From Candidatus Rokuibacteriota bacterium (lineage in GTDB: Bacteria > Methylomirabilota > Methylomirabilia > Rokubacteriales > CSP1-6), in assembly GCA_003220265.1 (NCBI GenBank), contig QHRW01000019.1:1043-65042 (forward strand): DNA of 64,000 nt, in the 5' to 3' direction. Both the position numbers and the translations under genes were made by a program. This document shows positions 3,233-18,132 of the stretch, piece after piece (within the stretch, counting starts at the first letter, position 1; every line of letters starts with the position of its first letter). The notes under the pieces are model-generated. The model saw nothing but the letters and a program-made list of their open reading frames with translations. It did no database searches and was not told the DNA's origin.

Positions 3233-4332
3233 GCCACGTGTCCGTTCACGGGCAGGCTGAACACGAAGCGGCAGCCCTCCTCGGTGTCGTCGAGCCAGAT
3301 CCGGCCCTGGTGGGCCTCCACCAGGCGGCGACAGATCACGAGGCCCAGGCCGGTGCCGGGCGTGCTGGCGTGCCGGCCCGAGGTCGTCTGGCTGAAGGGC
3401 TCGAAGAGGAACTGGCGCTCCTCGGGCGGCACCCCCGGCCCGCTGTCGCGGACGGCGATGGTGACGGCCTCGGCGTCGCCGTCGAGCTCGACCCGGATGG
3501 CGCCCTCGGGCGGGGTGAACTTCAGCGCGTTCGTCAGCAGGTTCATGATGACCTGCTCGAGCCGCGCGGCATCGCCGAGGACGGTGCGCGGCGCGTCCAC
3601 GCCCCGGGCCGTCAGCTCGATGGAGCGCTGGCGCGCGGCCGGCTGGAACGCCTCCACCACGTCGGTCACCATCCGGCGGAGATCGACCGGCACCCGCTCG
3701 ATCGTCAGCTTGCCCACCTCGAACTTCGACACGTCGAGGATCTGGCGGATGAGCCCCAGCATGCGCTTGGCCGAGTCGTCGATGGCGGTGGCGTAGCGCA
3801 TCAGCGTGGCGTCGGCCTGCGACCCCAGGCGGCCCTTGAGGAGCTGCGTATAGCCGTCGATGACGGTGAGCGGCGCCCGCAGGTCGTGCACGAGCATCGA
3901 GGTGAAGTTGGCGCGCAGCGTCTGCAGCTCTCGCAGCAGGCGGTTGCGCTCGATGGCCCCGCGGACGCGGATGCTGACGCGATGGGCGTCGATCGGCTTG
4001 GTGAGATAGTCCACCGCGCCGGCGCGCAGCGCGCGGTCCATCGCCCCCAGGTTGTCCTCCGTCGCCGTGAGGATGATGACGGGGATCTCGCGCGTGCGGG
4101 GATTGCTCTCCAGGCGCTCGAGCACCTCGAAGCCGGTCATGCCCGGCATCGAGATGTCGAGCAGGATGCAGTCGGGGCGGGCGGCGCTGGCCAGCGCGAG
4201 GCCGCTCTCGCCGTCGTCGGCCTCCAGCACCCGGTGCTCGGCGTCGAACAGATAGCGGATGAGCAGACGATTTTCCGAGCGGTCGTCGATGACCAGAATG
4301 GTGCTGCGAGGCTCACCCGACTCGCTCGACAC
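3229..4332 (-). CDS. hybrid sensor histidine kinase (N-terminal receiver, HisKA, HATPase_c)
   Basis: Receiver (ILVIDD...ILLDISMP...YLTKP), H-box SMLVHDLRAPL, and ATPase N/G boxes (LLTNALKF, DSGPGVP, GTGLGL). Start set at GTG 4332, which follows GGAG. The open frame extends to 4485, so the start is uncertain. Confidence 0.85.
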   Translation of the reverse strand: MSSESGEPRSTILVIDDRSENRLLIRYLFDAEHRVLEADDGESGLALASAARPDCILLDISMPGMTGFEVLERLESNPRTREIPVIILTATEDNLGAMDRALRAGAVDYLTKPIDAHRVSIRVRGAIERNRLLRELQTLRANFTSMLVHDLRAPLTVIDGYTQLLKGRLGSQADATLMRYATAIDDSAKRMLGLIRQILDVSKFEVGKLTIERVPVDLRRMVTDVVEAFQPAARQRSIELTARGVDAPRTVLGDAARLEQVIMNLLTNALKFTPPEGAIRVELDGDAEAVTIAVRDSGPGVPPEERQFLFEPFSQTTSGRHASTPGTGLGLVICRRLVEAHQGRIWLDDTEEGCRFVFSLPVNGHVA

Positions 4333-4647
4333 GTTCGCACTCCAGGGGGTTGGCGAGGCGCACCGGTCCGAAGTGGACCGATGCCAATGTAACAATCCGC
4401 GGGGCGCGTTCTCGACGAAAAAACACGCTCCGCCGATCACTTGCAGCACGCGCGCGTGCTCCCTGACACGACGACCGCCGCCCATTGTGGGGGCGCGCGA
4501 CGTCGCGCTCTAGCGCTGGCGCGCGCGCCTCTGCCGCGCTTGTGTGCATCGGGGTTCTCCCCACACGCTGCGACGAGCACCTAATCGCCGCGCGACCTCC
4601 TCGTCAAGCGTCGTCGACGAATGCGCACCATGTTGCAGGACGGCCGG

Positions 4648-4663
4648 CGGCACGGAAGATGCT
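4648..4663 (+). promoter_or_regulatory. sigma54-type promoter motif upstream of the receiver gene at 4759
   Basis: cGGCACGgaagaTGCt. GG (4649-4650) and GC (4661-4662) have exact -24/-12 spacing. Intergenic, correct orientation, about 95 nt before the GTG start. Confidence 0.4.
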
Positions 4664-4758
4664 AGTCGTCCCTCGGGGCTCGCATTCTGCCTTCAGGGGA
4701 GGGCACCGTTATCGCACAGGCCGATAAGCGCCACGACACGCGGCCACGCGGCCGGATA

Positions 4759-5193
4759 GTGCGCCCTCCTGCACGACCGCGGCGCGCCGCCAAGTCCCAG
4801 GAGCGGCCGCACGCCCGCGCCCACGGTCTCGTCCTGATCGTGGATGACACCGCGGACACGCGCGAGATGTACTCGCAGTACCTGACGAGCCGGGGGTTCA
4901 CGGTCCTGACCGCGCGCGACGGGGCGTTCGGCGTGGACGCGGCGCGGCGGCACCGGCCCGACGTGATCGTCATGGACCTGGCGATGCCCAACGTGGACGG
5001 CATCACCGCGACCCTGCAGCTCAAGGGCGACACGGAAACCCGCCGCATGCCGATCCTGATCTTGACCGGCTATCCCATGCAGGCCATCGACCAGGGCGCG
5101 CTGGAGGCGGGCGCCGATGTCTTCCTCACGAAGCCCTGCCTTCCCGAGGACCTCGAACAGCACGTTCAGCGGCTGATGGAGCGCGCCGCCTAG
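4759..5193 (+). CDS. single-domain response regulator (CheY-like receiver)
   Basis: 144 aa. LVLIVDD, DVIVMDLAMP, FLTKP. GTG is the only canonical start in the open frame and the RBS is weak. Confidence 0.85.
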   Translation: MRPPARPRRAAKSQERPHARAHGLVLIVDDTADTREMYSQYLTSRGFTVLTARDGAFGVDAARRHRPDVIVMDLAMPNVDGITATLQLKGDTETRRMPILILTGYPMQAIDQGALEAGADVFLTKPCLPEDLEQHVQRLMERAA

Positions 5194-5224
5194 CACCACG
5201 AATCAGGCGAAACGGAGTGCCGGT

Positions 5225-5542
5225 CTACTCTCCGTAGACGATGGTCGTGTACTTGGCGTAGATGCCGAGGAAGCTATCCGTCTCGTGGTCGACATGGTGG
5301 ATCCGCGTGATCCCGCCATTCTTCATCGCCGCCGATATGCTGGCGTCGCCTGTCGCGTACGCGAGGATGCCCCACGCCTCTGCCCTGCCGACCTTGGAGC
5401 TACCGGCCGCCGGGCCGGCGGAGATCGGGCCCTTCATGTCGACCGTCACGCGCGCGGTGACCGGGCCGTGACCTACGGCGGTGCAGCCCGTGAAGGCCAT
5501 GCAAACGAGTGCAATCACCAGTGGGCGTGCGAATGTCGTCAT
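5225..5542 (-). CDS. TRL-like lipoprotein
   Basis: 105 aa from an internal ATG with a GGGAGGA RBS. Lipobox-like AFTGC. C-terminal GDASISAAMKNGGITRIHHVDHETDSFLGIYAKYTTIVYGE resembles the TRL domain family (recalled). Confidence 0.7.
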   Translation of the reverse strand: MTTFARPLVIALVCMAFTGCTAVGHGPVTARVTVDMKGPISAGPAAGSSKVGRAEAWGILAYATGDASISAAMKNGGITRIHHVDHETDSFLGIYAKYTTIVYGE

Positions 5543-5641
5543 CGTTCCTCCCTTTCTTTCTCTCATGTCGATCCGCAGACGCCCCGTTTCGCCTGATCCT
5601 TCGTCTGGTTCTACCGTACCAGCGCCGGGGCATAACCTCGC

Positions 5642-5657
5642 TGGCATTTCGATTGCC
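5642..5657 (+). promoter_or_regulatory. sigma54-type promoter (-24/-12) for the secreted repeat protein gene
   Basis: TGGCATttcgaTTGCc, a near-consensus match to TGGCAC-N5-TTGCW. It lies 32 nt upstream of the ATG at 5689, with an AAGGAGG RBS in between. Confidence 0.55.
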
Positions 5658-5688
5658 CCGCAGCGACCCGACCCAAAGGAGGTGCCCG

Positions 5689-6273
5689 ATGCAGAAGATC
5701 CTCGTCGCAATCGTCGCGATCGCCCTCGGCCTGGCCCTGGCCGGCCCCGCCGCCGCGCAATCGCAGAACGTTCACGGGCAGGTGCAATCCGTTCAGGGCA
5801 CGCAACTGACCTTCAGGTCGGACGATGGCCGCGTGCTGACCGTGGACATGACCGCCGTCGGCCAGGAGATCCAGCAAGCCCTGGCGCCCGGCATGGGTGT
5901 GACCATTACCGGCTCGGCGGGAGCCAGCCCCACGCAGATGACGGCGCAGTACATCCAGCAGGACTCGAGCGATCCGTCGCGAGGCGGCACGATCGTCGGT
6001 CAGCCGACCGCCCAGCCCTCGGCAGACTGGCAGAAGGTGCATGGCACCGTGCAATCCGTCTCCGGCACCACGCTGATGATGAAGGCCGACGACGGCCGCG
6101 AGCTCACCGTGGACATGAGCGCGGTCGGTCAGAACATCCAGCAGGCGTTGCAGCAGGGCATGGGCGTCACGCTGGCCGGCTTCGCCGGCGCGGCGGCCAA
6201 TCAGTTCACGGCGCAGTTCATCCAGCAGGACTCGAGCGCGGGCGCACCCGCGGCCTCACCGACCACGAAGTAG
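5689..6273 (+). CDS. secreted protein made of two tandem ~67-aa beta-rich modules
   Basis: 194 aa from an internal ATG with an AAGGAGG RBS. Signal peptide MQKILVAIVAIALGLALAGPAAA. Two near-identical modules run VHGxVQSV...DDGRxLTVDM.AVGQ.IQQAL..GMGVT..G...A.Q.TAQ(Y/F)IQQDSS. Confidence 0.8.
   Translation: MQKILVAIVAIALGLALAGPAAAQSQNVHGQVQSVQGTQLTFRSDDGRVLTVDMTAVGQEIQQALAPGMGVTITGSAGASPTQMTAQYIQQDSSDPSRGGTIVGQPTAQPSADWQKVHGTVQSVSGTTLMMKADDGRELTVDMSAVGQNIQQALQQGMGVTLAGFAGAAANQFTAQFIQQDSSAGAPAASPTTK
5770..6237 (+). repeat. internal gene duplication (two ~201-nt coding modules separated by a 66-nt linker)
   Basis: Modules at about 5770-5970 and 6037-6237 encode colinear sequences of 67 aa each (see CDS 5689..6273). 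Confidence 0.8.
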
Positions 6274-6412: not shown

Positions 6413-8095
6413 ATGCGGAACGCCGACGAGCACGTCCTCATCCCCACCCTCAAGCGCCAGCTCGTGGATCGGCAGATCGACCGCCGCGAGTTCCTCCGCT
6501 ACGCCGCCCTGCTCGGCATGTCGGTGCCGGTCGCCGACGCGTTCGTGCGCAAGGTCACCGGGCAGTCGCTGGTGGCGCCGGCGGCGGCGCAGAGCCTGCC
6601 CAAGGGCGGCACCCTTCGCCTCGGCATGCGCTGCCAGGACCTCAAGAGCCCGCACACGTACTCCTGGATCGAATCCGCGAACACTGCGCGGCAGGTGCTC
6701 GACTACCTGGCGGTCACCGGCGTGGACAACGTCACCCGGCCCGGTCTCCTCGAGAAGTGGGAAGCAAGTCCCGACCTCAAGACATGGACGCTGCGGCTGC
6801 GCCGCAACGTGAAGTGGCACAACGGCCGGCAGTTCACGGCCGACGACGTGGTCTGGAATCTCAAGCGCGTGCTGGACCCCAAGACCGGCTCCTCCACCGT
6901 CGGCTTGATGAAGGGCTTCCTGCTCGAGGAATTCGAGACGGGCGACAAGGACGACAAGGGCAACGCCAAGAAGTCGGTGCGGCTCTGGGACGCCAACGCC
7001 ATCCAGAAGGTCGACGCCTACACGGTGCGCCTCAACGGCAAGACGGCCCAGCTCGCCGTGCCCGAGCAGCTCTTCCACTATCCCCTGCTGATCATGGATC
7101 CCGCCGAGAACGGCGAGTTCAAGGTCGGCTCGAACGGCACCGGCGCCTTCACGCTGGTGGAGAGCGAGGTCGGCCGGCGCAACGTGCTCAAGGCGCGCAA
7201 GGAACCGTACTGGGGCGGCGGGCCCTACCTGGACGAGCTGCAGTTCATCGACCTCGGCGACGACCCGGCGGCGGCCGTGGCCGCCCTCGCCGGCAAGCAG
7301 GTGGACGGCCTCTACGCCGCCGACATCGTCCAGCTCGACGCGCTCCAGAAGATTCCGCACGTGCAGATGTACCAGGTGGCCACCGCCTACACGGCCACCG
7401 CGCGCGTGCAACCGGTGAAGCCGTTCGACGACAAGCGCGTGCGCCAGGCGCTGCGCTACGCGATCGACTCGAACACCATCCTCCAGATCGCGCACAAGGG
7501 CCTCGGGCAGGCGGGCGAGCACCACCACGTGAGCCCGGTGCATCCGGAGTACGCGAAGCTGCCCGCCTTCCCGCGCGACGTCGCGAAGGCCAAGCGCTTG
7601 CTGGCCGAGGCCGGCTATCCCGGCGGCATCGACGTGGAGATCGCCTGCAAGCCGTCGCCGCCGTGGGAGCTGATCGCCGTGCAGGCCATGGTGGAGCAAT
7701 GGAAGGAGGCCGGCATCCGCGTGAAGATGAACGTGATGCCGTCCACGCAGTACTGGGAGGTGTGGACCAAGACGCCGTTCGGCTTCACGACGTGGGCGCA
7801 TCGCCCGCTCGGCGTGATGAGCCTCGCCCTCGCCTATCGCACGGGCGTGCCCTGGAACGAGTCGAAGTATTCCAATCCCGAGTTCGATCGCCTGCTCACG
7901 CTGGCGGAGGGCACCATCGACGTGGTCGCGCGGCGCGAGATCATGGGGCAGCTCGAGCGGATCCTCCAGGACGACGGCCCGATCGTGCAGCCGGTGTGGC
8001 GCGCCGTCTTCACCTTCCACGACAAGCGCGTGCAGGGCTTCAAGGCGCACCCCGCGCTCTACATCTTCGCCCACCAGCTCGCGATCAGCACGTAG
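6413..8095 (+). CDS. ABC transporter substrate-binding protein, family 5 (DppA/OppA-like), Tat-exported
   Basis: 560 aa. Twin-arginine signal DRREFLRYAALLGM. Overall peptide/opine-type SBP architecture. Confidence 0.88.
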   Translation: MRNADEHVLIPTLKRQLVDRQIDRREFLRYAALLGMSVPVADAFVRKVTGQSLVAPAAAQSLPKGGTLRLGMRCQDLKSPHTYSWIESANTARQVLDYLAVTGVDNVTRPGLLEKWEASPDLKTWTLRLRRNVKWHNGRQFTADDVVWNLKRVLDPKTGSSTVGLMKGFLLEEFETGDKDDKGNAKKSVRLWDANAIQKVDAYTVRLNGKTAQLAVPEQLFHYPLLIMDPAENGEFKVGSNGTGAFTLVESEVGRRNVLKARKEPYWGGGPYLDELQFIDLGDDPAAAVAALAGKQVDGLYAADIVQLDALQKIPHVQMYQVATAYTATARVQPVKPFDDKRVRQALRYAIDSNTILQIAHKGLGQAGEHHHVSPVHPEYAKLPAFPRDVAKAKRLLAEAGYPGGIDVEIACKPSPPWELIAVQAMVEQWKEAGIRVKMNVMPSTQYWEVWTKTPFGFTTWAHRPLGVMSLALAYRTGVPWNESKYSNPEFDRLLTLAEGTIDVVARREIMGQLERILQDDGPIVQPVWRAVFTFHDKRVQGFKAHPALYIFAHQLAIST

Positions 8096-8118
8096 GCGGC
8101 TCGGGCGCCGCCGCGCCC

Positions 8119-9315
8119 TCAGAGGCGGTGCTTCGGGTGCGGGTCGGCGGCCCAGCGGGCGCTGGGCACGAGGTCGTTCTCGCGGAAGCGGGTCCAGCGG
8201 AACGGCGTCAGGTCGAAGTCCTTCGCCTTGCCGTGCAGGATCAGGTCGGACATCAGGTCGCCGGTGAACGGCGAGTGCTTGAAGCCGTGGCCGCTCCAGC
8301 CGAAGTCGGCGTAGAGCCCGGCGTACTCCGGGATGGCGCCCAGCACCGGGTGGTGATCGGGCGTGGCGTCGTACAGGCCTGAGTAGCCGCCCATCGCGAG
8401 GCCGTGCTCCATCACCGGAAAGCGTTCGGCGATCAGCTCCGCGTTTCTCACGATCTGGTCGGCATCGGCGCCCTCGTTGTACGCGTCGGGATCGACGATC
8501 TCGTCGTACGAGAGCTTGCCGTGGATCGTCAGGTCGCCGTGCTCCGGCCGCATGTAGGTCATCAGCAGGCTGTCGGCCACGGCCGGATGCACGCCGAAGC
8601 CGGCCGGCCGGCGGAAGAAGCACATCTGGTGGCGCTCGGGCTTGATCGCGACCTCGATGCCGAGCGGCGCCAGCAGCCGGTTGGCGTAGAGCCCGGCGCA
8701 GTTGAGGACGACCGGCGCGTCGACGTCCACGCCTTCCGACGTGACGCCGACGACCTTCCCGCCCGCCGCGCGGATGCGGTCCACGCCGCGGTACTGCACG
8801 ATCGTCGCGCCCAGCTCGCGCGCGCGGTTGACGAGCGCGTTGGCGGTGGACGAGGGATCGGCGTAGCCGGAGTCGGCTTCGTAGGACGCCAGCGCCAGAT
8901 CGTCCACGTTCATCGCCGGGACCAGGGCCCTCACCTCGGCCGGCGAGATCAGCTCGACGCCGGCCCCCAGCTCGGCTGCGCGCAGGGCGTTGCGCCGCAG
9001 GTGCTCGGCCCGCTCCGGCCCGGCCAGCGCCAGCAGCCCGACCTTCTGGAAGCCGGGATCGCCGTCGCCGCCCACCACATCCTTCCAGTTCCGGAAGATC
9101 GTGTGGGCGGCGCAGGCGGAGCGCGTGAAGAAGTCCATGGCGTAGAACTGACGCACCAGCGCCGTCGAGCGCCCCGTCGGGCCCGAGGCGATGAACTTCT
9201 TCTCGATCAGCAGGATCCGCCCGGCCTTCTTGCGCGCGAAGTGGAAGGCGGCGCTGGCGCCGTGCACGCCGCCGCCGATGATCACGACGTCCGCGCTCTT
9301 TGGAAGGTCGGCCAT
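8119..9315 (-). CDS. FAD-dependent oxidoreductase (DAO / sarcosine-oxidase-beta-like)
   Basis: 398 aa from an internal ATG (MADLPKSADVVIIGGGVHGASAAFHF dinucleotide fold). ATGA overlap with the upstream gene. The 542-aa ORF in the track is over-extended. Confidence 0.85.
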   Translation of the reverse strand: MADLPKSADVVIIGGGVHGASAAFHFARKKAGRILLIEKKFIASGPTGRSTALVRQFYAMDFFTRSACAAHTIFRNWKDVVGGDGDPGFQKVGLLALAGPERAEHLRRNALRAAELGAGVELISPAEVRALVPAMNVDDLALASYEADSGYADPSSTANALVNRARELGATIVQYRGVDRIRAAGGKVVGVTSEGVDVDAPVVLNCAGLYANRLLAPLGIEVAIKPERHQMCFFRRPAGFGVHPAVADSLLMTYMRPEHGDLTIHGKLSYDEIVDPDAYNEGADADQIVRNAELIAERFPVMEHGLAMGGYSGLYDATPDHHPVLGAIPEYAGLYADFGWSGHGFKHSPFTGDLMSDLILHGKAKDFDLTPFRWTRFRENDLVPSARWAADPHPKHRL

Positions 9316-11198
9316 CACTCGTCGCTCACGATGAGGCGGGTGTGGGCGGTGGGCTCGTCGAGCACCATGCCGGGCTCCCAGTGCGGGCTGAACTGGGTCG
9401 GGATGCCGAACCAGCTCACCCAGTGCTCGCGCATGGCCGCCGGCTCGTCGTCCGGCCACAGCACGTTGAGAGGCAACGGGCGGATCGGCGGCCGGAAGGT
9501 CGGCAGCGGGATGCGATCGAGCGTGGTGCCGGCCGCCTGCGCCAGCAGCAGGCCGACCTGCTCGCGGCAGCGCCGGCTCTGGCACGGTCCCATGCCGGCG
9601 CGCGTCAGCCGCTTGATCTGGTCCTGGTTGACCGGGCCGTCGCGCAGGAGCGTGCCGACGCTCCGCGCGCTCATCTGCGGCGAGTCCCACTCGAGATAGC
9701 GCGGCGGCTTCGTCTCCACCAGCTCGCGCCGCGTGACCTCCTCGCACTGGCAGACGTTGACCTCCCAGCCGCCCGCGGCAATCAGCGACGCCAGCCAGCG
9801 CTGCCAGTAATCGGGGGGCCCCGACATGGCCCCCCGAACCCCCCCGTCCGTTCGGCGCGCCCCGGCGGAGCCGGGGCGCGCCTCGTTAATCGGGCCCAGC
9901 GACTCGGCGCCCGCAACACCGGGGCGCGCCTCGTTCACCGGGTCCAGCGACTCGGCGCGGGCAAACCCGGGGCGCGCCTCGTTCACCGGGCCGTGCGACT
10001 CGGCGCCCGCAAAGCCGGGGCGCGCTTCGTTCACCGGGCCCAGCGACTCGCCGCCGGCAAAGCTGTGGCGCGCCTCGTTGACCGGGCCGCGCGACTCGGC
10101 GGCGGCGCCGCGGCGCGTCCTGTCAACCCGGTCGAGGGACTCGGCGGCGGCGGCGCCGGCGATCCGGCCCTGGTCGCGGGCGATGTCCGGCGCGGCGAGC
10201 ATCGCGTCGTGAACGCCGGCGCAGTCGCCGGCGGCGAACACGGTGGGCACGGTCGTGCGCATCGAGCCGTCGAGCTCGGGCACCCAGCCGCCGAGCGGCG
10301 AGGCGAAGCGCAGGCGGGCGCCGACGAGGTGCAGCAGCTCGACGCTCGGCGTCTGACCGATGGCCATGACCACCGCGTCGCAGGCGATCTGCGTCTCGCG
10401 ACCGGCGATCGGCTCGCCGGCGCCATCGACGGCGACGATCACCAGCGACTCGATCTCGCCCGTGCGCCCGCGCCCCGCACGGATCGTGTGCCCCGTGAAG
10501 AACGGCACGCCGCGCGCGGCCAGCGCCCTGGCCGCGGCGGCATCGCCGCGCACGTGCGCGTCCACCTCGACGATGCCTGCCACCTCCACGCCGTGGTCGA
10601 GCGCGAGGGCCGCCGTGTGAAGGCCGAGCGCGCCGGAGCCGATCACGACGATGCGCCGTGCAGCCAGCGCGCGATACCGCGTGAGCAGCGCCGCGGCGCC
10701 GGCGGCCCCCAGCGTGCCGGCGCGCTCCCAGCCCGGGAAGCCCAGCAGCACGTCGCGGGCGCCCGCGGCGACGATCAGCCGGTCCCAGCCGACGAGCCAC
10801 GAGCGGCGATCGTCGGCGACGCCGAGCATCGGCGAGGGCAGCTCCTGCACCGTCGGCCCGTTGACGAACGCGCCCCATACGTAGGCGCCGAGCTGGACGT
10901 CCACGCCGGCCTCGTCGGCGGCGGCCAGCGCCGGATTCGTCTCCACGACCCGCTCGAGCATCGCCCCGCGGTTGCGGACGGTGGCGTCCATGCGCTGGCC
11001 GAAGCAGAGCGGCACGTCCATCGCCATCATGTCGTTGTCGACGGGGTGCTCGTCGAGCAGGAGCACCTCGACCCCGGCGCGTGCCGCCTCCACCGCCGCG
11101 GCGACGCCGGCCGCGCCGGCGCCGACGACCACCAGCGGCACGTGGCGCTCGGGCGTCGGCGCCTTGCCCGCGTACGAGCGGCGATCGAGCTCGGGCAT
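9315..11198 (-). CDS. FAD/NAD(P)-binding oxidoreductase with BFD-like [2Fe-2S] C-terminal domain (opine-oxidase-A-like)
   Basis: 627 aa. Two GxGxxG folds (VVVGAGAAGVAAA, VVIGSGALGLHTA). Cys motifs CQCEEV and GMGPCQSRRC. ATGA overlaps at both ends. Carries a ~95-aa in-frame repeat insertion between the domains. Confidence 0.8.
   Translation of the reverse strand: MPELDRRSYAGKAPTPERHVPLVVVGAGAAGVAAAVEAARAGVEVLLLDEHPVDNDMMAMDVPLCFGQRMDATVRNRGAMLERVVETNPALAAADEAGVDVQLGAYVWGAFVNGPTVQELPSPMLGVADDRRSWLVGWDRLIVAAGARDVLLGFPGWERAGTLGAAGAAALLTRYRALAARRIVVIGSGALGLHTAALALDHGVEVAGIVEVDAHVRGDAAAARALAARGVPFFTGHTIRAGRGRTGEIESLVIVAVDGAGEPIAGRETQIACDAVVMAIGQTPSVELLHLVGARLRFASPLGGWVPELDGSMRTTVPTVFAAGDCAGVHDAMLAAPDIARDQGRIAGAAAAESLDRVDRTRRGAAAESRGPVNEARHSFAGGESLGPVNEARPGFAGAESHGPVNEARPGFARAESLDPVNEARPGVAGAESLGPINEARPGSAGARRTDGGVRGAMSGPPDYWQRWLASLIAAGGWEVNVCQCEEVTRRELVETKPPRYLEWDSPQMSARSVGTLLRDGPVNQDQIKRLTRAGMGPCQSRRCREQVGLLLAQAAGTTLDRIPLPTFRPPIRPLPLNVLWPDDEPAAMREHWVSWFGIPTQFSPHWEPGMVLDEPTAHTRLIVSDE
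9813..9900 (+). repeat. dispersed palindromic element, copy A (two hairpins), embedded in a CDS
   Basis: Hairpin 1 is CGGGGGGCC-CCGACAT-GGCCCCCCG. Hairpin 2 is CGCGCCCCGGC-GGA-GCCGGGGCGCG. About 80 percent identical by eye over ~85 nt to 35045-35130. Confidence 0.75.
9873..10160 (+). repeat. tandem array of six 48-bp units (in frame on the minus-strand CDS)
   Basis: Units start at 9873, 9921, 9969, 10017, 10065 and 10113, with core GGGGCGCGCCTCGTTCACCGGGCC..GCGACTCGGCGC. They translate on the minus strand as ES.GPVNEARPGFAGA repeated. The last unit is degenerate. Confidence 0.9.
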
Positions 11199-12384
11199 CA
11201 GCCGTTGCCGCCGGCGACGGCCGCGACGGCCGGCGAGGCCGCCACCCAGCCCGCTCGCTCCCGCCAGTCGCGCGGTGTGTCGGCGAAGCGGCCGAGCGCC
11301 AGCGCGCCGAGGTCGGCGAAGAGGCAGCGGCCGTGCTGTACGAGCTCGCTGATGGCGCGGCCGGAGGCGGGCGAGAGACCGAAGCCCACGCTCGACATGG
11401 TCGCGATGACGACGTTGTCGGGCCGGGCCAGGCGCTCGACGACGGGCAGGCCGTCGGGCGTGTTCTCGACGAGGCCGCTCCACGCGCGGATCACGCGCAC
11501 GTGGGCGGCGCCCGGCAGCAGCTCGGCGAGCCGCCGGGCCAGGTTGCGCACGAGCGGCGTGTTCGTGTGCTCGGGCGTCGCCATGTCGGGCACGTTGATC
11601 CACTCGTGCGGCCCGCCGCCGTACACCAGGTTGCCCCGCAGCGTCTGCCGCCCGTAGAGGCCGTTGCCCGCCACGCCGCCGACGTGCATGAGCGGAATCG
11701 GCTCGGTGGCGATCATCTCGACGCGCGCCGGCGCGACTGGCAGCCACACGCCGAGCATCTCGGCGAACGCGCCCGTCTGCGGTCCGGCGGCGATCACGAC
11801 GACGTCGGCGCCGAGCGTGCCCGCCGTCGTCTCCACGGCGGTGACGCGCCCGCCGCGCTGGACGAGCCCGGTCACCGTCGTGTGCTGCAGGATCCGCCCG
11901 CCGTGGTCCTGCAGCGCCCACGCGTAGGCCTGCACGGTCCGCTGCGGGTTGGCGTGGCCGCCGAAGTGCAGGTACGTGCCGCCGATCGCGTTGTCGCCGA
12001 CGATGGGCACCAGCTCCTTGAGCTGGCGGCGATCGAGCGACTCCCAGCGGAAGCCGCGCATCTCGCCGATCTCGGCCCAGCGCCGGGCCAGCGCGAGCTG
12101 CGTGTCCGTCAGCGCGACGCCGATCCGGAACGGCTGATGCTCGGTGGGATAGCCGAGCAGCTCGTCCATCTGCGGCCAGAGCCGCTGCTCCTCGAGACCG
12201 AACGGGCTGTAGACGTGCGTGGCGCCGCCGCCGTTGCGGCCGGAGGCCTCCCAGCCCACGATGCTCTTGTCGAGCACGAGCACGTCCACGCCGGCGCGGG
12301 CCAGCCACCAGCCGGCGCTCAGTCCCGTCACGCCGCCGCCCACGATCACCACCGAGGCTCCGCGCGTCTGGGTCATGGCGCTCA

Positions 12385-12385
<1 letters not shown>
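11198..12385 (-). CDS. FAD-dependent oxidoreductase (DAO / opine-oxidase-B-like)
   Basis: About 395 aa. VVIVGGGVTGLSAGWWLA fold. Start candidates at 12388, 12385 or 12376; 12385 gives an ATGA overlap with the ATPase stop. Confidence 0.85.
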
Positions 12386-14452
<2,067 letters not shown>

Positions 14453-16313: not shown

Positions 16314-17411
16314 TCAGCCGGACGCGGGCGCGGCCGGGCGGTAGTTGCGGCGGGCGTACTCGAGATAATCCTGGCGCAGCCGCTTGTCGCTGCCGAACAG
16401 GATGTGCTTGGACATGTCCGGCGAGTACCGGCTGGCCGGCGGCCGCCGGCCGAGCGCCTCGGCCAGGCTGCGGATGTGATGGGGGCCGGCGCCGCAGCAG
16501 ACGCCGAGGTAGCGGGCGCCGAGGTTGAATGCCTCCTTGCCGAACTCGGCGATCTCGTACCGGCTGCACAGGAACGGATCGAGCGCCGTCGGGAACGGCC
16601 GTCCGTCGGGGTTGCCGTGGGGATCGGTCAGGCTCTGGAACGTCGGCTCCGCCGGAGTCGTGCGATAGGGCACGGGCAGCGCGGCGACGTGGCAGGTGAC
16701 GGCCGACCGCACCTCGCGCACCAGCGGCAGCGTGGTGGCGGGCCCGCGCGCGCAGTTGAGCCCCACCACGTCGGCGCCGCCGTCCTGCAGCCGCTTGGCC
16801 GTCTCGGTCAGCGTCCAGCCGTCGCGCATGCGTCCCTCGCGCGGCACCGACAGCGTCATCACCGCCGGCTTGCCCGAGCGCTTGATGGCCGCCAGCGCCA
16901 GCAGCGCCTCGCTGCCCCACGAGTACGTCTCGCCCACGATGAAGTCCACGCCCGCGTCCACCGCCCAGCCGATCTGCTCGTCGAAGGTCCGGCGCGCCTG
17001 CTTGTGGGAGGCGGTGTCGTCAAGCGCGTAGATGCTGGTGTTGCAGATGTCGCCGGCCAGCAGCGTGCCAGTGGAGCGCGCCACCTTGCGCGCGATCGAC
17101 AGCGCCGCGCGATTGATCCGCGCCAGGTCCTTCTCGCGCCCGACCATCTTGAGCTTGGCGCGGTGCGCGTAGTAGGTGAAGGCCTCGACCACGTCCGAGC
17201 CGGCGTGGACGAAGTCCCGGTGCAGGCCCTCGACCAGCTCCGGATGCTCGAGCACGACTTCCGGCACGTAGGCGCCGGCCTGCAGATAGCCGCGACGCTC
17301 GAACTCGAACAGGTAGCCCTCCGCGCAGATGACGGGCCCCGCGGCCAGCCGCTCCAGCAGGCCGGCGGGCTTCGCTGCCGTCTTCGACGTCCGCGTCTTC
17401 TTCACTGGCAT
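16314..17411 (-). CDS. homocysteine S-methyltransferase family protein (BHMT-like)
   Basis: 365 aa from an internal ATG (MPVKK...). Hcy-binding domain with C-terminal Zn-ligand Cys pair YLGVCCGAGPHHI. The 529-aa track ORF is over-extended. Confidence 0.8.
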   Translation of the reverse strand: MPVKKTRTSKTAAKPAGLLERLAAGPVICAEGYLFEFERRGYLQAGAYVPEVVLEHPELVEGLHRDFVHAGSDVVEAFTYYAHRAKLKMVGREKDLARINRAALSIARKVARSTGTLLAGDICNTSIYALDDTASHKQARRTFDEQIGWAVDAGVDFIVGETYSWGSEALLALAAIKRSGKPAVMTLSVPREGRMRDGWTLTETAKRLQDGGADVVGLNCARGPATTLPLVREVRSAVTCHVAALPVPYRTTPAEPTFQSLTDPHGNPDGRPFPTALDPFLCSRYEIAEFGKEAFNLGARYLGVCCGAGPHHIRSLAEALGRRPPASRYSPDMSKHILFGSDKRLRQDYLEYARRNYRPAAPASG

Positions 17412-17451
17412 GGGGCATCCATATACCACAACGCCGGGCCCGACGCGCGAC

Positions 17452-18132
17452 TCAGGGTGCGGCGGGCGTGAGGCTCGCGTGGGTGGCCAGATCGCCGCGC
17501 CAGAGATAGAGCGCCAGCAGCGGCACGGCGCCCGCCCGCGTGGCGTGGCGGACGTCCGGCGGGTGATGGATGGCCGTGCCCGGCGGCTCGAGCCGCCACG
17601 GCCCGTCGTCGCGCCACCACTCGCCCGGGGTGAGCGTGTAGTACACCTCGACGGCGGGATGGGCGTGCAGCGGATAGTGCCTGCCCGGCCCGAGCAGCAG
17701 CGCGCCGAGCGCCAGGCGCGGATCGGTCGCCAGCGCGGGCGGGCCGTCGGCGGGCCCGGCGATGACCGCATAGCCGTAGTTGTCGAGGAACGCGGCGTCG
17801 GGCGGACGCCGCCGGTAATTCGGATTCTGCGTCCACGACAGCCACGGGGCGAGCGCGTCGAGCGCGCCGGCGAGCGGATCACCGGCTGATTCGAGCGCGG
17901 CATTCCAGTACCGGCACACGGGCAGGCGCGGCGGCGTCTCGCGCGGCGGCGCGTTGGCCTTCAGCGAGCGCACGAGCGTGGCGAGCTCGCGCAGCGTCGC
18001 CGCCGCCCCCGCGTCGGCCGCCGGCGCCGCGGCGCGGTCCAGCGCCGCGTCCAGCGCGACGAGGAACGCCGCGAGCGCCGCCGCCGGATCAGGATGCGCT
18101 ATGCTCCCGCCCATGCCGAACCGTCCCCGCAT
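17452..18132 (-). CDS. cupin-fold protein, DMSP-lyase (DddL-like) family candidate
   Basis: 226 aa. Cupin metal motif GRHYPLHAHPAVEVYY (HxHxxxE) and a second His motif GTAIHHPPDVRH. First gene of the long minus-strand operon. ATG 18132 has a GGAG RBS; 18114 is an alternative start. Confidence 0.6.
   Translation of the reverse strand: MRGRFGMGGSIAHPDPAAALAAFLVALDAALDRAAAPAADAGAAATLRELATLVRSLKANAPPRETPPRLPVCRYWNAALESAGDPLAGALDALAPWLSWTQNPNYRRRPPDAAFLDNYGYAVIAGPADGPPALATDPRLALGALLLGPGRHYPLHAHPAVEVYYTLTPGEWWRDDGPWRLEPPGTAIHHPPDVRHATRAGAVPLLALYLWRGDLATHASLTPAAP

Follow-up and report, generated by a model that had tools for sequence, protein, structure and literature searches.

We examined a window of 64,000 nucleotides from a Candidatus Rokuibacteriota genome assembly (GCA_003220265.1, contig QHRW01000019.1), in which a gene for a putative flavoprotein subunit contains a six-unit tandem array, read in frame with the rest of the protein. 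The gene, the array and its units (U1 to U6, numbered in coding order) are laid out as follows.

9315..11198, minus strand: repeat-bearing coding sequence (CDS), 627 aa, translated without a stop; SoxA/OoxA/HcnB-like subunit of a heteromeric flavoprotein amine dehydrogenase or oxidase
9861..10145, minus strand: in-frame tandem array, 285 bp, 95 aa (residues 352-446), one 45-bp and five 48-bp units
10101-10145, minus strand: U1, 45 bp (AESLDRVDRTRRGAA), first in coding order
10053-10100, minus strand: U2, 48 bp
10005-10052, minus strand: U3, 48 bp
9957-10004, minus strand: U4, 48 bp
9909-9956, minus strand: U5, 48 bp
9861-9908, minus strand: U6, 48 bp, last unit

A tandem array in an inter-domain linker

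An earlier, sequence-only reading of the window had described a head-to-tail, in-frame array of six units, and Tandem Repeats Finder (TRF), a repeat search and translation all confirm it. TRF reported a single array (9869-10101, period 48, 4.9 copies, 85% matches, score 340), with every other row for the window scoring 71 or less (81 rows in total), and the repeat search placed six copies in register at spacings of 48, 48, 48, 48 and 45. The exact 48-bp period that had been assigned to all units holds for five of them; U1 is one codon shorter, at 45 bp, and is the most diverged (73%). The consensus of the 48-bp unit encodes AESLGPVNEARPGFAG, and its core, PVNEAR, is nearly invariant across U2-U6. 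These five units differ from one another at 5-9 of 48 nt (10-19% divergence). Exact repeats in the array reach 24 nt at most, and all units can be told apart. When a 26-nt unit core was searched with up to three mismatches, all five matches in the window fell within the array, and 100 shuffles gave none.

The array is read without a stop, and its GC content at third codon positions (GC3) is 0.92, compared with 0.95 for the whole CDS. An open reading frame on the plus strand (9826-10212, 128 aa) was regarded as an artefact that high GC content produces antisense to the gene; it is the minus frame that has the GC3 of 0.92 and hundreds of homologues. We also rejected a structured-RNA reading of the array: Rfam at gathering thresholds gave no match in the window, and the folding of the array as mRNA is not unusual (z = -0.87).

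Pfam and AlphaFold bear out the proposed position of the array between the flavin adenine dinucleotide/nicotinamide adenine dinucleotide (FAD/NAD) domain and the BFD-like domain. The former (Pyr_redox_2) covers residues 22-336 and the latter, a C-terminal Cys-rich domain of the SO_alpha_A3/Fer2_BFD type, residues 518-580; the array occupies the linker that joins them. In an AlphaFold2 model built from a 66-sequence alignment (moderate overall, with a mean predicted local distance difference test score (pLDDT) of 60.5), residues 371-460 have pLDDT values of about 28-35 and no secondary structure, and helices at 337-369 and 461-476 flank this predicted disordered stretch.

We found 660 homologues, most of them 540-555 aa in length. 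Between the invariant residues L355 and W465, the linker measures 22-55 aa (median 28) in an alignment of 66 homologues, compared with 109 aa in the window. The figure of about 95 aa that had been given for the added sequence describes the array in full; compared with relatives, the protein has gained less, about 64-80 aa net. All homologues share the start of the unit, AAAESLG, and U1 (SLDRVDRTRRGAAA) is similar to the consensus of the family, SLGALDRREAExRRG; the repeat unit is therefore native linker sequence. A one-unit linker of this lineage, at about 35 aa, lies within the family range. Among 57 homologous loci, arrays with a TRF score above 100 are restricted to this small clade. Other lineages have small linker duplications or insertions of their own (SSAPHA/SSAPHV, IPLPH...IPLPH and a GPQFELSGAA.RRGLS block, in P0095, P0114 and P0118/P0119), and the linker is hypervariable across the enzyme family.

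Copy number among relatives and the origin of the array

We read alleles at the orthologous site in relatives of the Rokubacteria lineage (loci L001, L002, L003, L084, L085 and L086 and protein P0121), with the following result.

1 unit: L002 (= L086) and L084 (two samples); 95% nucleotide identity to the window
2 units: L001; 92.5% nucleotide identity to the window
4 units: P0121, a protein fragment
5 units: L085; 99.45% nucleotide identity to the window over 10,067 bp
6 units: the window and L003 (ENA scaffold, 30.8 kb); CDS identical

The predicted variation of linker length between strains is thus borne out, with one, two, four, five and six units in close relatives. Compared unit by unit, U1 of the window corresponds to U1 of L001, U2 to the 5' half of L001 U2 and U6 to its 3' half, which places the expansion inside the second unit. 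The protein lengths agree with this (566 + 64 - 3 = 627 aa). U3 of L085 resembles a hybrid of U3 and U4 of the window, as unequal exchange would give.

Searches for dispersed copies returned the same gene or nothing. No further copy of the unit, or of either of the two hairpins that lie beside the array, was found in the 64-kb window at up to three mismatches, and a repeat scan of the whole window turned up no family of dispersed repeats at all. A degenerate pattern of the unit, fixed at 24 bases, had no match in 185,579 species genomes (one genome per species) and matched only three contigs in 241 million metagenome records, a set that includes the 99.45%-identical strain; all three carry the orthologous gene. 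The hairpin patterns occurred in orthologous genes only, among 86 fetched loci. A search of the 98-aa repeat peptide against 5.8 billion proteins listed the orthologous fragment P0121 only, with a sensitivity that is uncertain, as the window's own protein (P0001, P0002) was unlisted. The region is not bracketed by any pair of terminal inverted repeats or target-site duplications, and relatives differ by whole native units rather than by a bounded element. Every orthologue has a linker at the array site, so there is no clean insert-free orthologous site.

The features of a coding variable-number tandem repeat (VNTR) are all present: a head-to-tail unit of 10-100 bp, a length that is a multiple of three in a real gene, and a copy number that varies at the orthologous site, as read from short-read assemblies. 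We conclude that the array is very probably a coding minisatellite of this kind, derived from the linker sequence of the gene itself and located in a tether that is predicted to be disordered, and not a mobile palindromic element.

The array would have started as a tandem duplication within the part of the gene that codes for its linker. The first duplication may have arisen by misalignment at a short homology, GCCG, that is found at both unit ends, and later gains and losses probably came from replication slippage or unequal recombination between 48-bp units. From an ancestral state of one unit (as in L002) or two (as in L001), the lineage of the window would have reached five or six, the tether being stretched from about 28 aa to 109 aa, with frameshifted products presumably removed by selection. 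The suggestion that amplification with a 16-codon period keeps the frame is supported. Only in-frame variants persist because the period equals 16 codons and because a frameshift would destroy both the conserved C-terminal domain and the downstream gene, which is coupled through an ATGA overlap.

The extra length of the tether is most likely tolerated functionally rather than required. Pooled over U2-U6, the proportion of synonymous differences (pS) is 0.26 and that of non-synonymous differences (pN) is 0.12 (pN/pS 0.47), whereas comparison of the window with L001 or L002 over the folded domains yields a pS of 0.17-0.23, a pN of 0.005-0.04 and a pN/pS of 0.03-0.18; the repeat is therefore less constrained than the folded domains, although these counts come from tiny, non-independent samples.

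Several observations weigh against this account or limit it. The pS between units (0.26) is as large as that between lineages (0.18-0.25), and ongoing instability is therefore to be read from the alleles with four, five and six units only: the bulk of the expansion dates from about the time when the compared lineages separated, and these three alleles show later changes. The pN/pS of 0.47, together with the invariant PVNEAR core, could mean that the peptide is not entirely neutral. Every allele comes from a short-read metagenome assembly. L085 ends inside U1 and two of its units share an exact stretch of 32 nt, such that its five units could be the product of collapse, and P0121 is a 138-aa fragment without known provenance. 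The unlisted query protein leaves the sensitivity of the peptide search uncertain for repetitive sequence. Finally, the search of the source genome covered 64 kb, and a low-copy dispersed family may be present elsewhere in it.

In-frame VNTR variation is documented in the pe/ppe genes of Mycobacterium tuberculosis (PMC12817950) and in cagY of Helicobacter pylori (PMC2194252). Like these bacterial coding VNTRs, the array consists of head-to-tail units of tens of base pairs and a multiple of three in length that vary between strains, stay in frame and are attributed to slippage or recombination. Unlike them, it is located in the tether of a cytoplasmic catabolic flavoenzyme, and not in a surface or antigenic protein; its units are fairly diverged (10-19%), its instability is probably modest and its link to a phenotype is not established.

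A second likeness is with proteins. The E2 chains of 2-oxoacid dehydrogenases have flexible, Ala/Pro-rich inter-domain linkers of variable length, and the stretch described here is similarly a low-complexity, disordered tether between folded domains of a redox multi-enzyme that tolerates changes in length; the resemblance does not imply a swinging-arm role. To our knowledge, E2 linkers are not known as recent tandem arrays at the DNA level with copy-number change between strains.

The array reveals neither a new type of element nor a new mechanism. Its setting is a little out of the ordinary: a catabolic enzyme of the cytoplasm, from an uncultured phylum of soil bacteria, in which the flavoprotein tether is four times as long as the family median. 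Real alleles show a disordered inter-domain tether that has quadrupled by simple tandem duplication and is still kept, which makes the array useful to illustrate the tolerance of linkers and as a strain marker for an uncultured soil lineage.

Hairpins and alternative readings

Two hairpins and an unrepeated stretch adjoin the array.

9854..9882, unstranded: hairpin 2, perfect 13-nt arms and a 3-nt loop; spans the junction of U6 and the linker tail; encodes ARPGSAGAR
9811..9837, unstranded: hairpin 1, perfect 10-nt arms and a 7-nt loop; inside the linker tail; encodes RGAMSGPP(D)
9819..9860, minus strand: unrepeated lineage-specific linker tail (ARRTDGGVRGAMSG...), then a conserved helix, YWQRWLASLIAAGGW (from sequence comparison and the AlphaFold model)

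Both hairpins had been noted earlier, and both are exact: the arms of hairpin 1 are TCGGGGGGCC and GGCCCCCCGA (9811-9820 and 9828-9837), and those of hairpin 2 are GGCGCGCCCCGGC and GCCGGGGCGCGCC (9854-9866 and 9870-9882). The segment 9805-9900 has a folding energy of -37.3 kcal/mol as single-stranded DNA (z = -5.06 relative to shuffles). Each repeat unit holds only the left arm of hairpin 2, and the perfect palindrome is present once, at the junction of array and tail. Hairpin 2 is perfect in the window and in L085 and has two mismatches in L001 and L002; the window differs from its relatives by CAC to CCC and CGA to CGC, both of which perfect the palindrome. Hairpin 1 has two mismatches in L001. 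These mismatches in relatives give no indication that a structure is conserved at the hairpins. A terminator reading was rejected, since no T/U run comes after the hairpins on either strand.

The palindromes follow from the codons used: GCGCGC (Ala-Arg) is its own complement, CCCGGC (Pro-Gly) is complementary to GCCGGG (Ala-Gly), and GGG (Gly) to CCC (Pro). This is a reason for caution elsewhere, because GC-rich palindromes in high-GC coding sequence can be by-products of such codons and not mobile elements.

The left arm of hairpin 1 is, in L002, L084 and L086, the start point of a separate tandem duplication of 33 bp. This duplication in the one-unit relatives is also in frame (AMSGPPDQTIG / AMSGPPDQTDIS; positions 2160-2222 of L002, orthologous to about 9811-9840 of the window). 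At the same spot the window is without three codons (QTI) that L001 has; the linker tail is therefore also prone to insertions and deletions.

Speculatively, GC-rich hairpins may stall replication and locally promote misalignment. Two independent duplications have one end in a hairpin, and the two substitutions that set hairpin 2 of the window apart both perfect it, as would be expected of template-switch correction of quasi-palindromes, a general mechanism (PMC13100816). With so few events, hairpin-stimulated duplication remains a speculative lead. In a stronger form of this idea, quasi-palindromes coded by Gly, Pro, Ala and Arg would constitute a built-in mutational hot spot that seeds in-frame duplications in one narrow clade of Rokubacteria, the polymorphism in tether length being kept because it tunes the enzyme complex. 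Three duplications in the clade fit such a hot spot: the 45/48-bp duplication, its fivefold expansion, which ends in hairpin 2, and the independent 33-bp duplication, which starts in hairpin 1. The two substitutions in hairpin 2 fit it as well. We consider this combined proposal unlikely.

Array length could also be adaptive, either because the length of the tether adjusts how far the C-terminal Fe-S/A3 domain reaches, or how it docks, in the hetero-oligomer, or because the repeated peptide (ES.GPVNEARPGFAGA) serves as a motif with a function that depends on its valency. Changes in copy number would then work as a tuning knob. The near invariance of PVNEAR in U2-U6 and a pN/pS of less than 1 are in keeping with such a role, as are the persistence of units that have diverged by 10-19% yet have not been lost, and the coexistence of several alleles in soils. 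However, a linker of 22-55 aa suffices in homologues, some family members have next to no linker, the region is predicted to be disordered, its constraint is clearly weaker than that of the domains, and the peptide search, of uncertain sensitivity, found the motif in no other protein. The conserved core may instead be due to gene conversion, or to units that descend from a recent common ancestor. On balance, selection for length or valency seems quite improbable.

The sequence-only reading had proposed that an element resembling a repetitive extragenic palindrome (REP) or a miniature inverted-repeat transposable element (MITE), comparable to a Rickettsia palindromic element (RPE), had inserted in frame into the linker and that part of it was then amplified. 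This idea draws on the two strong, perfect hairpins that adjoin the array and on the linker tail of the window, L001 and L002 (ARR..GG.RGAMSGPPD), which is without a clear counterpart in homologues of 75-82% identity. It also has a precedent in the in-frame palindromic insertions documented in Rickettsia, where RPEs, dispersed elements of about 150 bp that code for a conserved peptide, are present in each genome at dozens of unrelated genes (PMC10969869). Like RPEs and intragenic MITEs, the array region is GC-rich palindromic DNA inside a CDS that keeps the frame in a permissive region of the protein. Unlike RPEs, it is confined to one locus, its unit is derived from native sequence and the palindromes are not in every unit; the likeness that had been drawn to RPEs therefore does not hold, the unit being found in orthologous genes only and beginning with the family-wide AAAESLG.

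REPs are extragenic, exist in hundreds of copies and are mobilized by REP-associated tyrosine transposases (RAYTs). The short GC-rich palindromes of REPs and bacterial interspersed mosaic elements (BIMEs), which are imperfect and sometimes form tandem clusters, are similar to those described here, but the array is intragenic and restricted to a single locus, both hairpins are coding, and dispersed extragenic copies were not found within the 64 kb, nor further copies in the public collections. We accordingly rejected membership of REP/BIME families, and that of MITEs as well, there being neither terminal inverted repeats nor a target-site duplication around any block and no empty orthologous site. 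The earlier reading had itself named the lack of other copies anywhere in the genome as a sign against insertion, and none came to light as far as the 64 kb and the public collections can tell. The conserved start of the unit, the length of the one-unit linker, which is within the family range, and the history of hairpin 2, mismatched in relatives and perfected in the lineage of the window alone, are further arguments against a mobile origin, which we regard as highly improbable.

An artefact of short-read metagenome assembly, in the array or in its copy number, is extremely improbable: tandem repeats are a known source of assembly error (PMC6868369), and L085 does end at the array, but the longest exact repeat of 24 nt is resolvable at an assembler k of 25 or more and the 30.8-kb ENA scaffold, an independent-looking assembly, carries an identical CDS, which together make such an error unlikely, and in addition frame and GC3 are kept through the array and related, non-identical arrays occur in other samples.

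Enzyme family and gene neighbourhood

The gene that carries the coding minisatellite lies between two genes for DAO-family proteins.

8119..9315, minus strand: downstream DAO-family FAD oxidoreductase, OoxB/SoxB-like partner, 398 aa (Pfam DAO, 1.6e-58); its start overlaps the stop of the repeat-bearing gene
11198..12388, minus strand: upstream DAO-family FAD oxidoreductase, 396 aa (Pfam DAO, 3.9e-61); its stop overlaps the start of the repeat-bearing gene

The features of the host-gene class are all present, namely Pyr_redox_2, a C-terminal A3/BFD-like Cys motif and an adjoining gene for a DAO-family partner. The best NCBIfam match of the 627-aa protein is the soxA subfamily (2.1e-30), and the Cys motifs CQC...CQSRRC of the C-terminal domain are invariant in aligned homologues. 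Foldseek matched the model over its full length to sarcosine oxidase alpha (2gag_A and 1vrq_A) and confirmed a TrxR/DLDH-like fold; the structure search adds nothing on the linker. The solved chains closest by sequence are thioredoxin reductases, sarcosine oxidase alpha (2GAG and 1VRQ) and Pyrococcus PH1363 (1Y56). The protein resembles SoxA, OoxA, HcnB and Pyrococcus PDH1 alpha (2GAG, 1VRQ and 1Y56) in its domain order and in its partnership with DAO-family subunits, but is related only distantly to the solved chains (E values of 1e-7 to 1e-9) and, unlike SoxA, is without the long C-terminal folate-binding half. We know of no repeat in this linker in SoxA, OoxA, HcnB or PDH1 alpha.

Both DAO-family neighbours overlap the repeat-bearing gene as ATGA (start/stop), and such overlaps between successive genes of the cluster are located at 9315-9317, 11196-11200 and 12385-12388. 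This arrangement suggests that the ATPase, DAO, SoxA-like and DAO genes are translationally coupled. Upstream on the same strand are genes for a fused Opp-type ATPase, two permeases and a protein with a homocysteine S-methyltransferase domain, and an SBP_bac_5 binding-protein gene lies near the cluster in divergent orientation. The host would thus be the A-like subunit of a heteromeric flavoenzyme of the SoxAB/OoxAB type within a putative uptake-and-catabolism cluster. At the head of the cluster is a 529-aa protein (16314-17903, minus strand) with the homocysteine S-methyltransferase domain at residues 215-484; this neighbour hints at a possible substrate among methylated amines or amino-acid derivatives rather than a classical opine.

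The closest genomes are soil metagenome-assembled genomes of Candidatus Rokuibacteriota / Methylomirabilota, at 75-84% amino-acid identity, and the gene order around the DAO partners is the same in L001 and L002. The junction of the DAO gene with the divergent binding-protein gene is a variable spot between strains: it spans about 25 bp in the window (8094-8119) and about 960 bp, with small open reading frames, in L002 (3904-4865) and L084 (2169-3130). L001 has a ParE-like toxin gene and other small open reading frames downstream (4272-5995).

Elsewhere in the window, a small protein encoded at 5509-6273 on the plus strand has a signal-peptide-like start (MQKILVAIVAIALGLALAGPAAAQ...) followed by two tandem copies of about 89 aa, and looks like the product of an internal domain duplication. 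The copies appear in the DNA as repeats at 5741-5971 and 6008-6238 (71% identity, spacing 267 bp) and have the form Q.VHG.VQSV.GT.L....DDGR.LTVDM.AVGQ.IQQAL..GMGVT..G.AGA....TAQ.IQQDSS.

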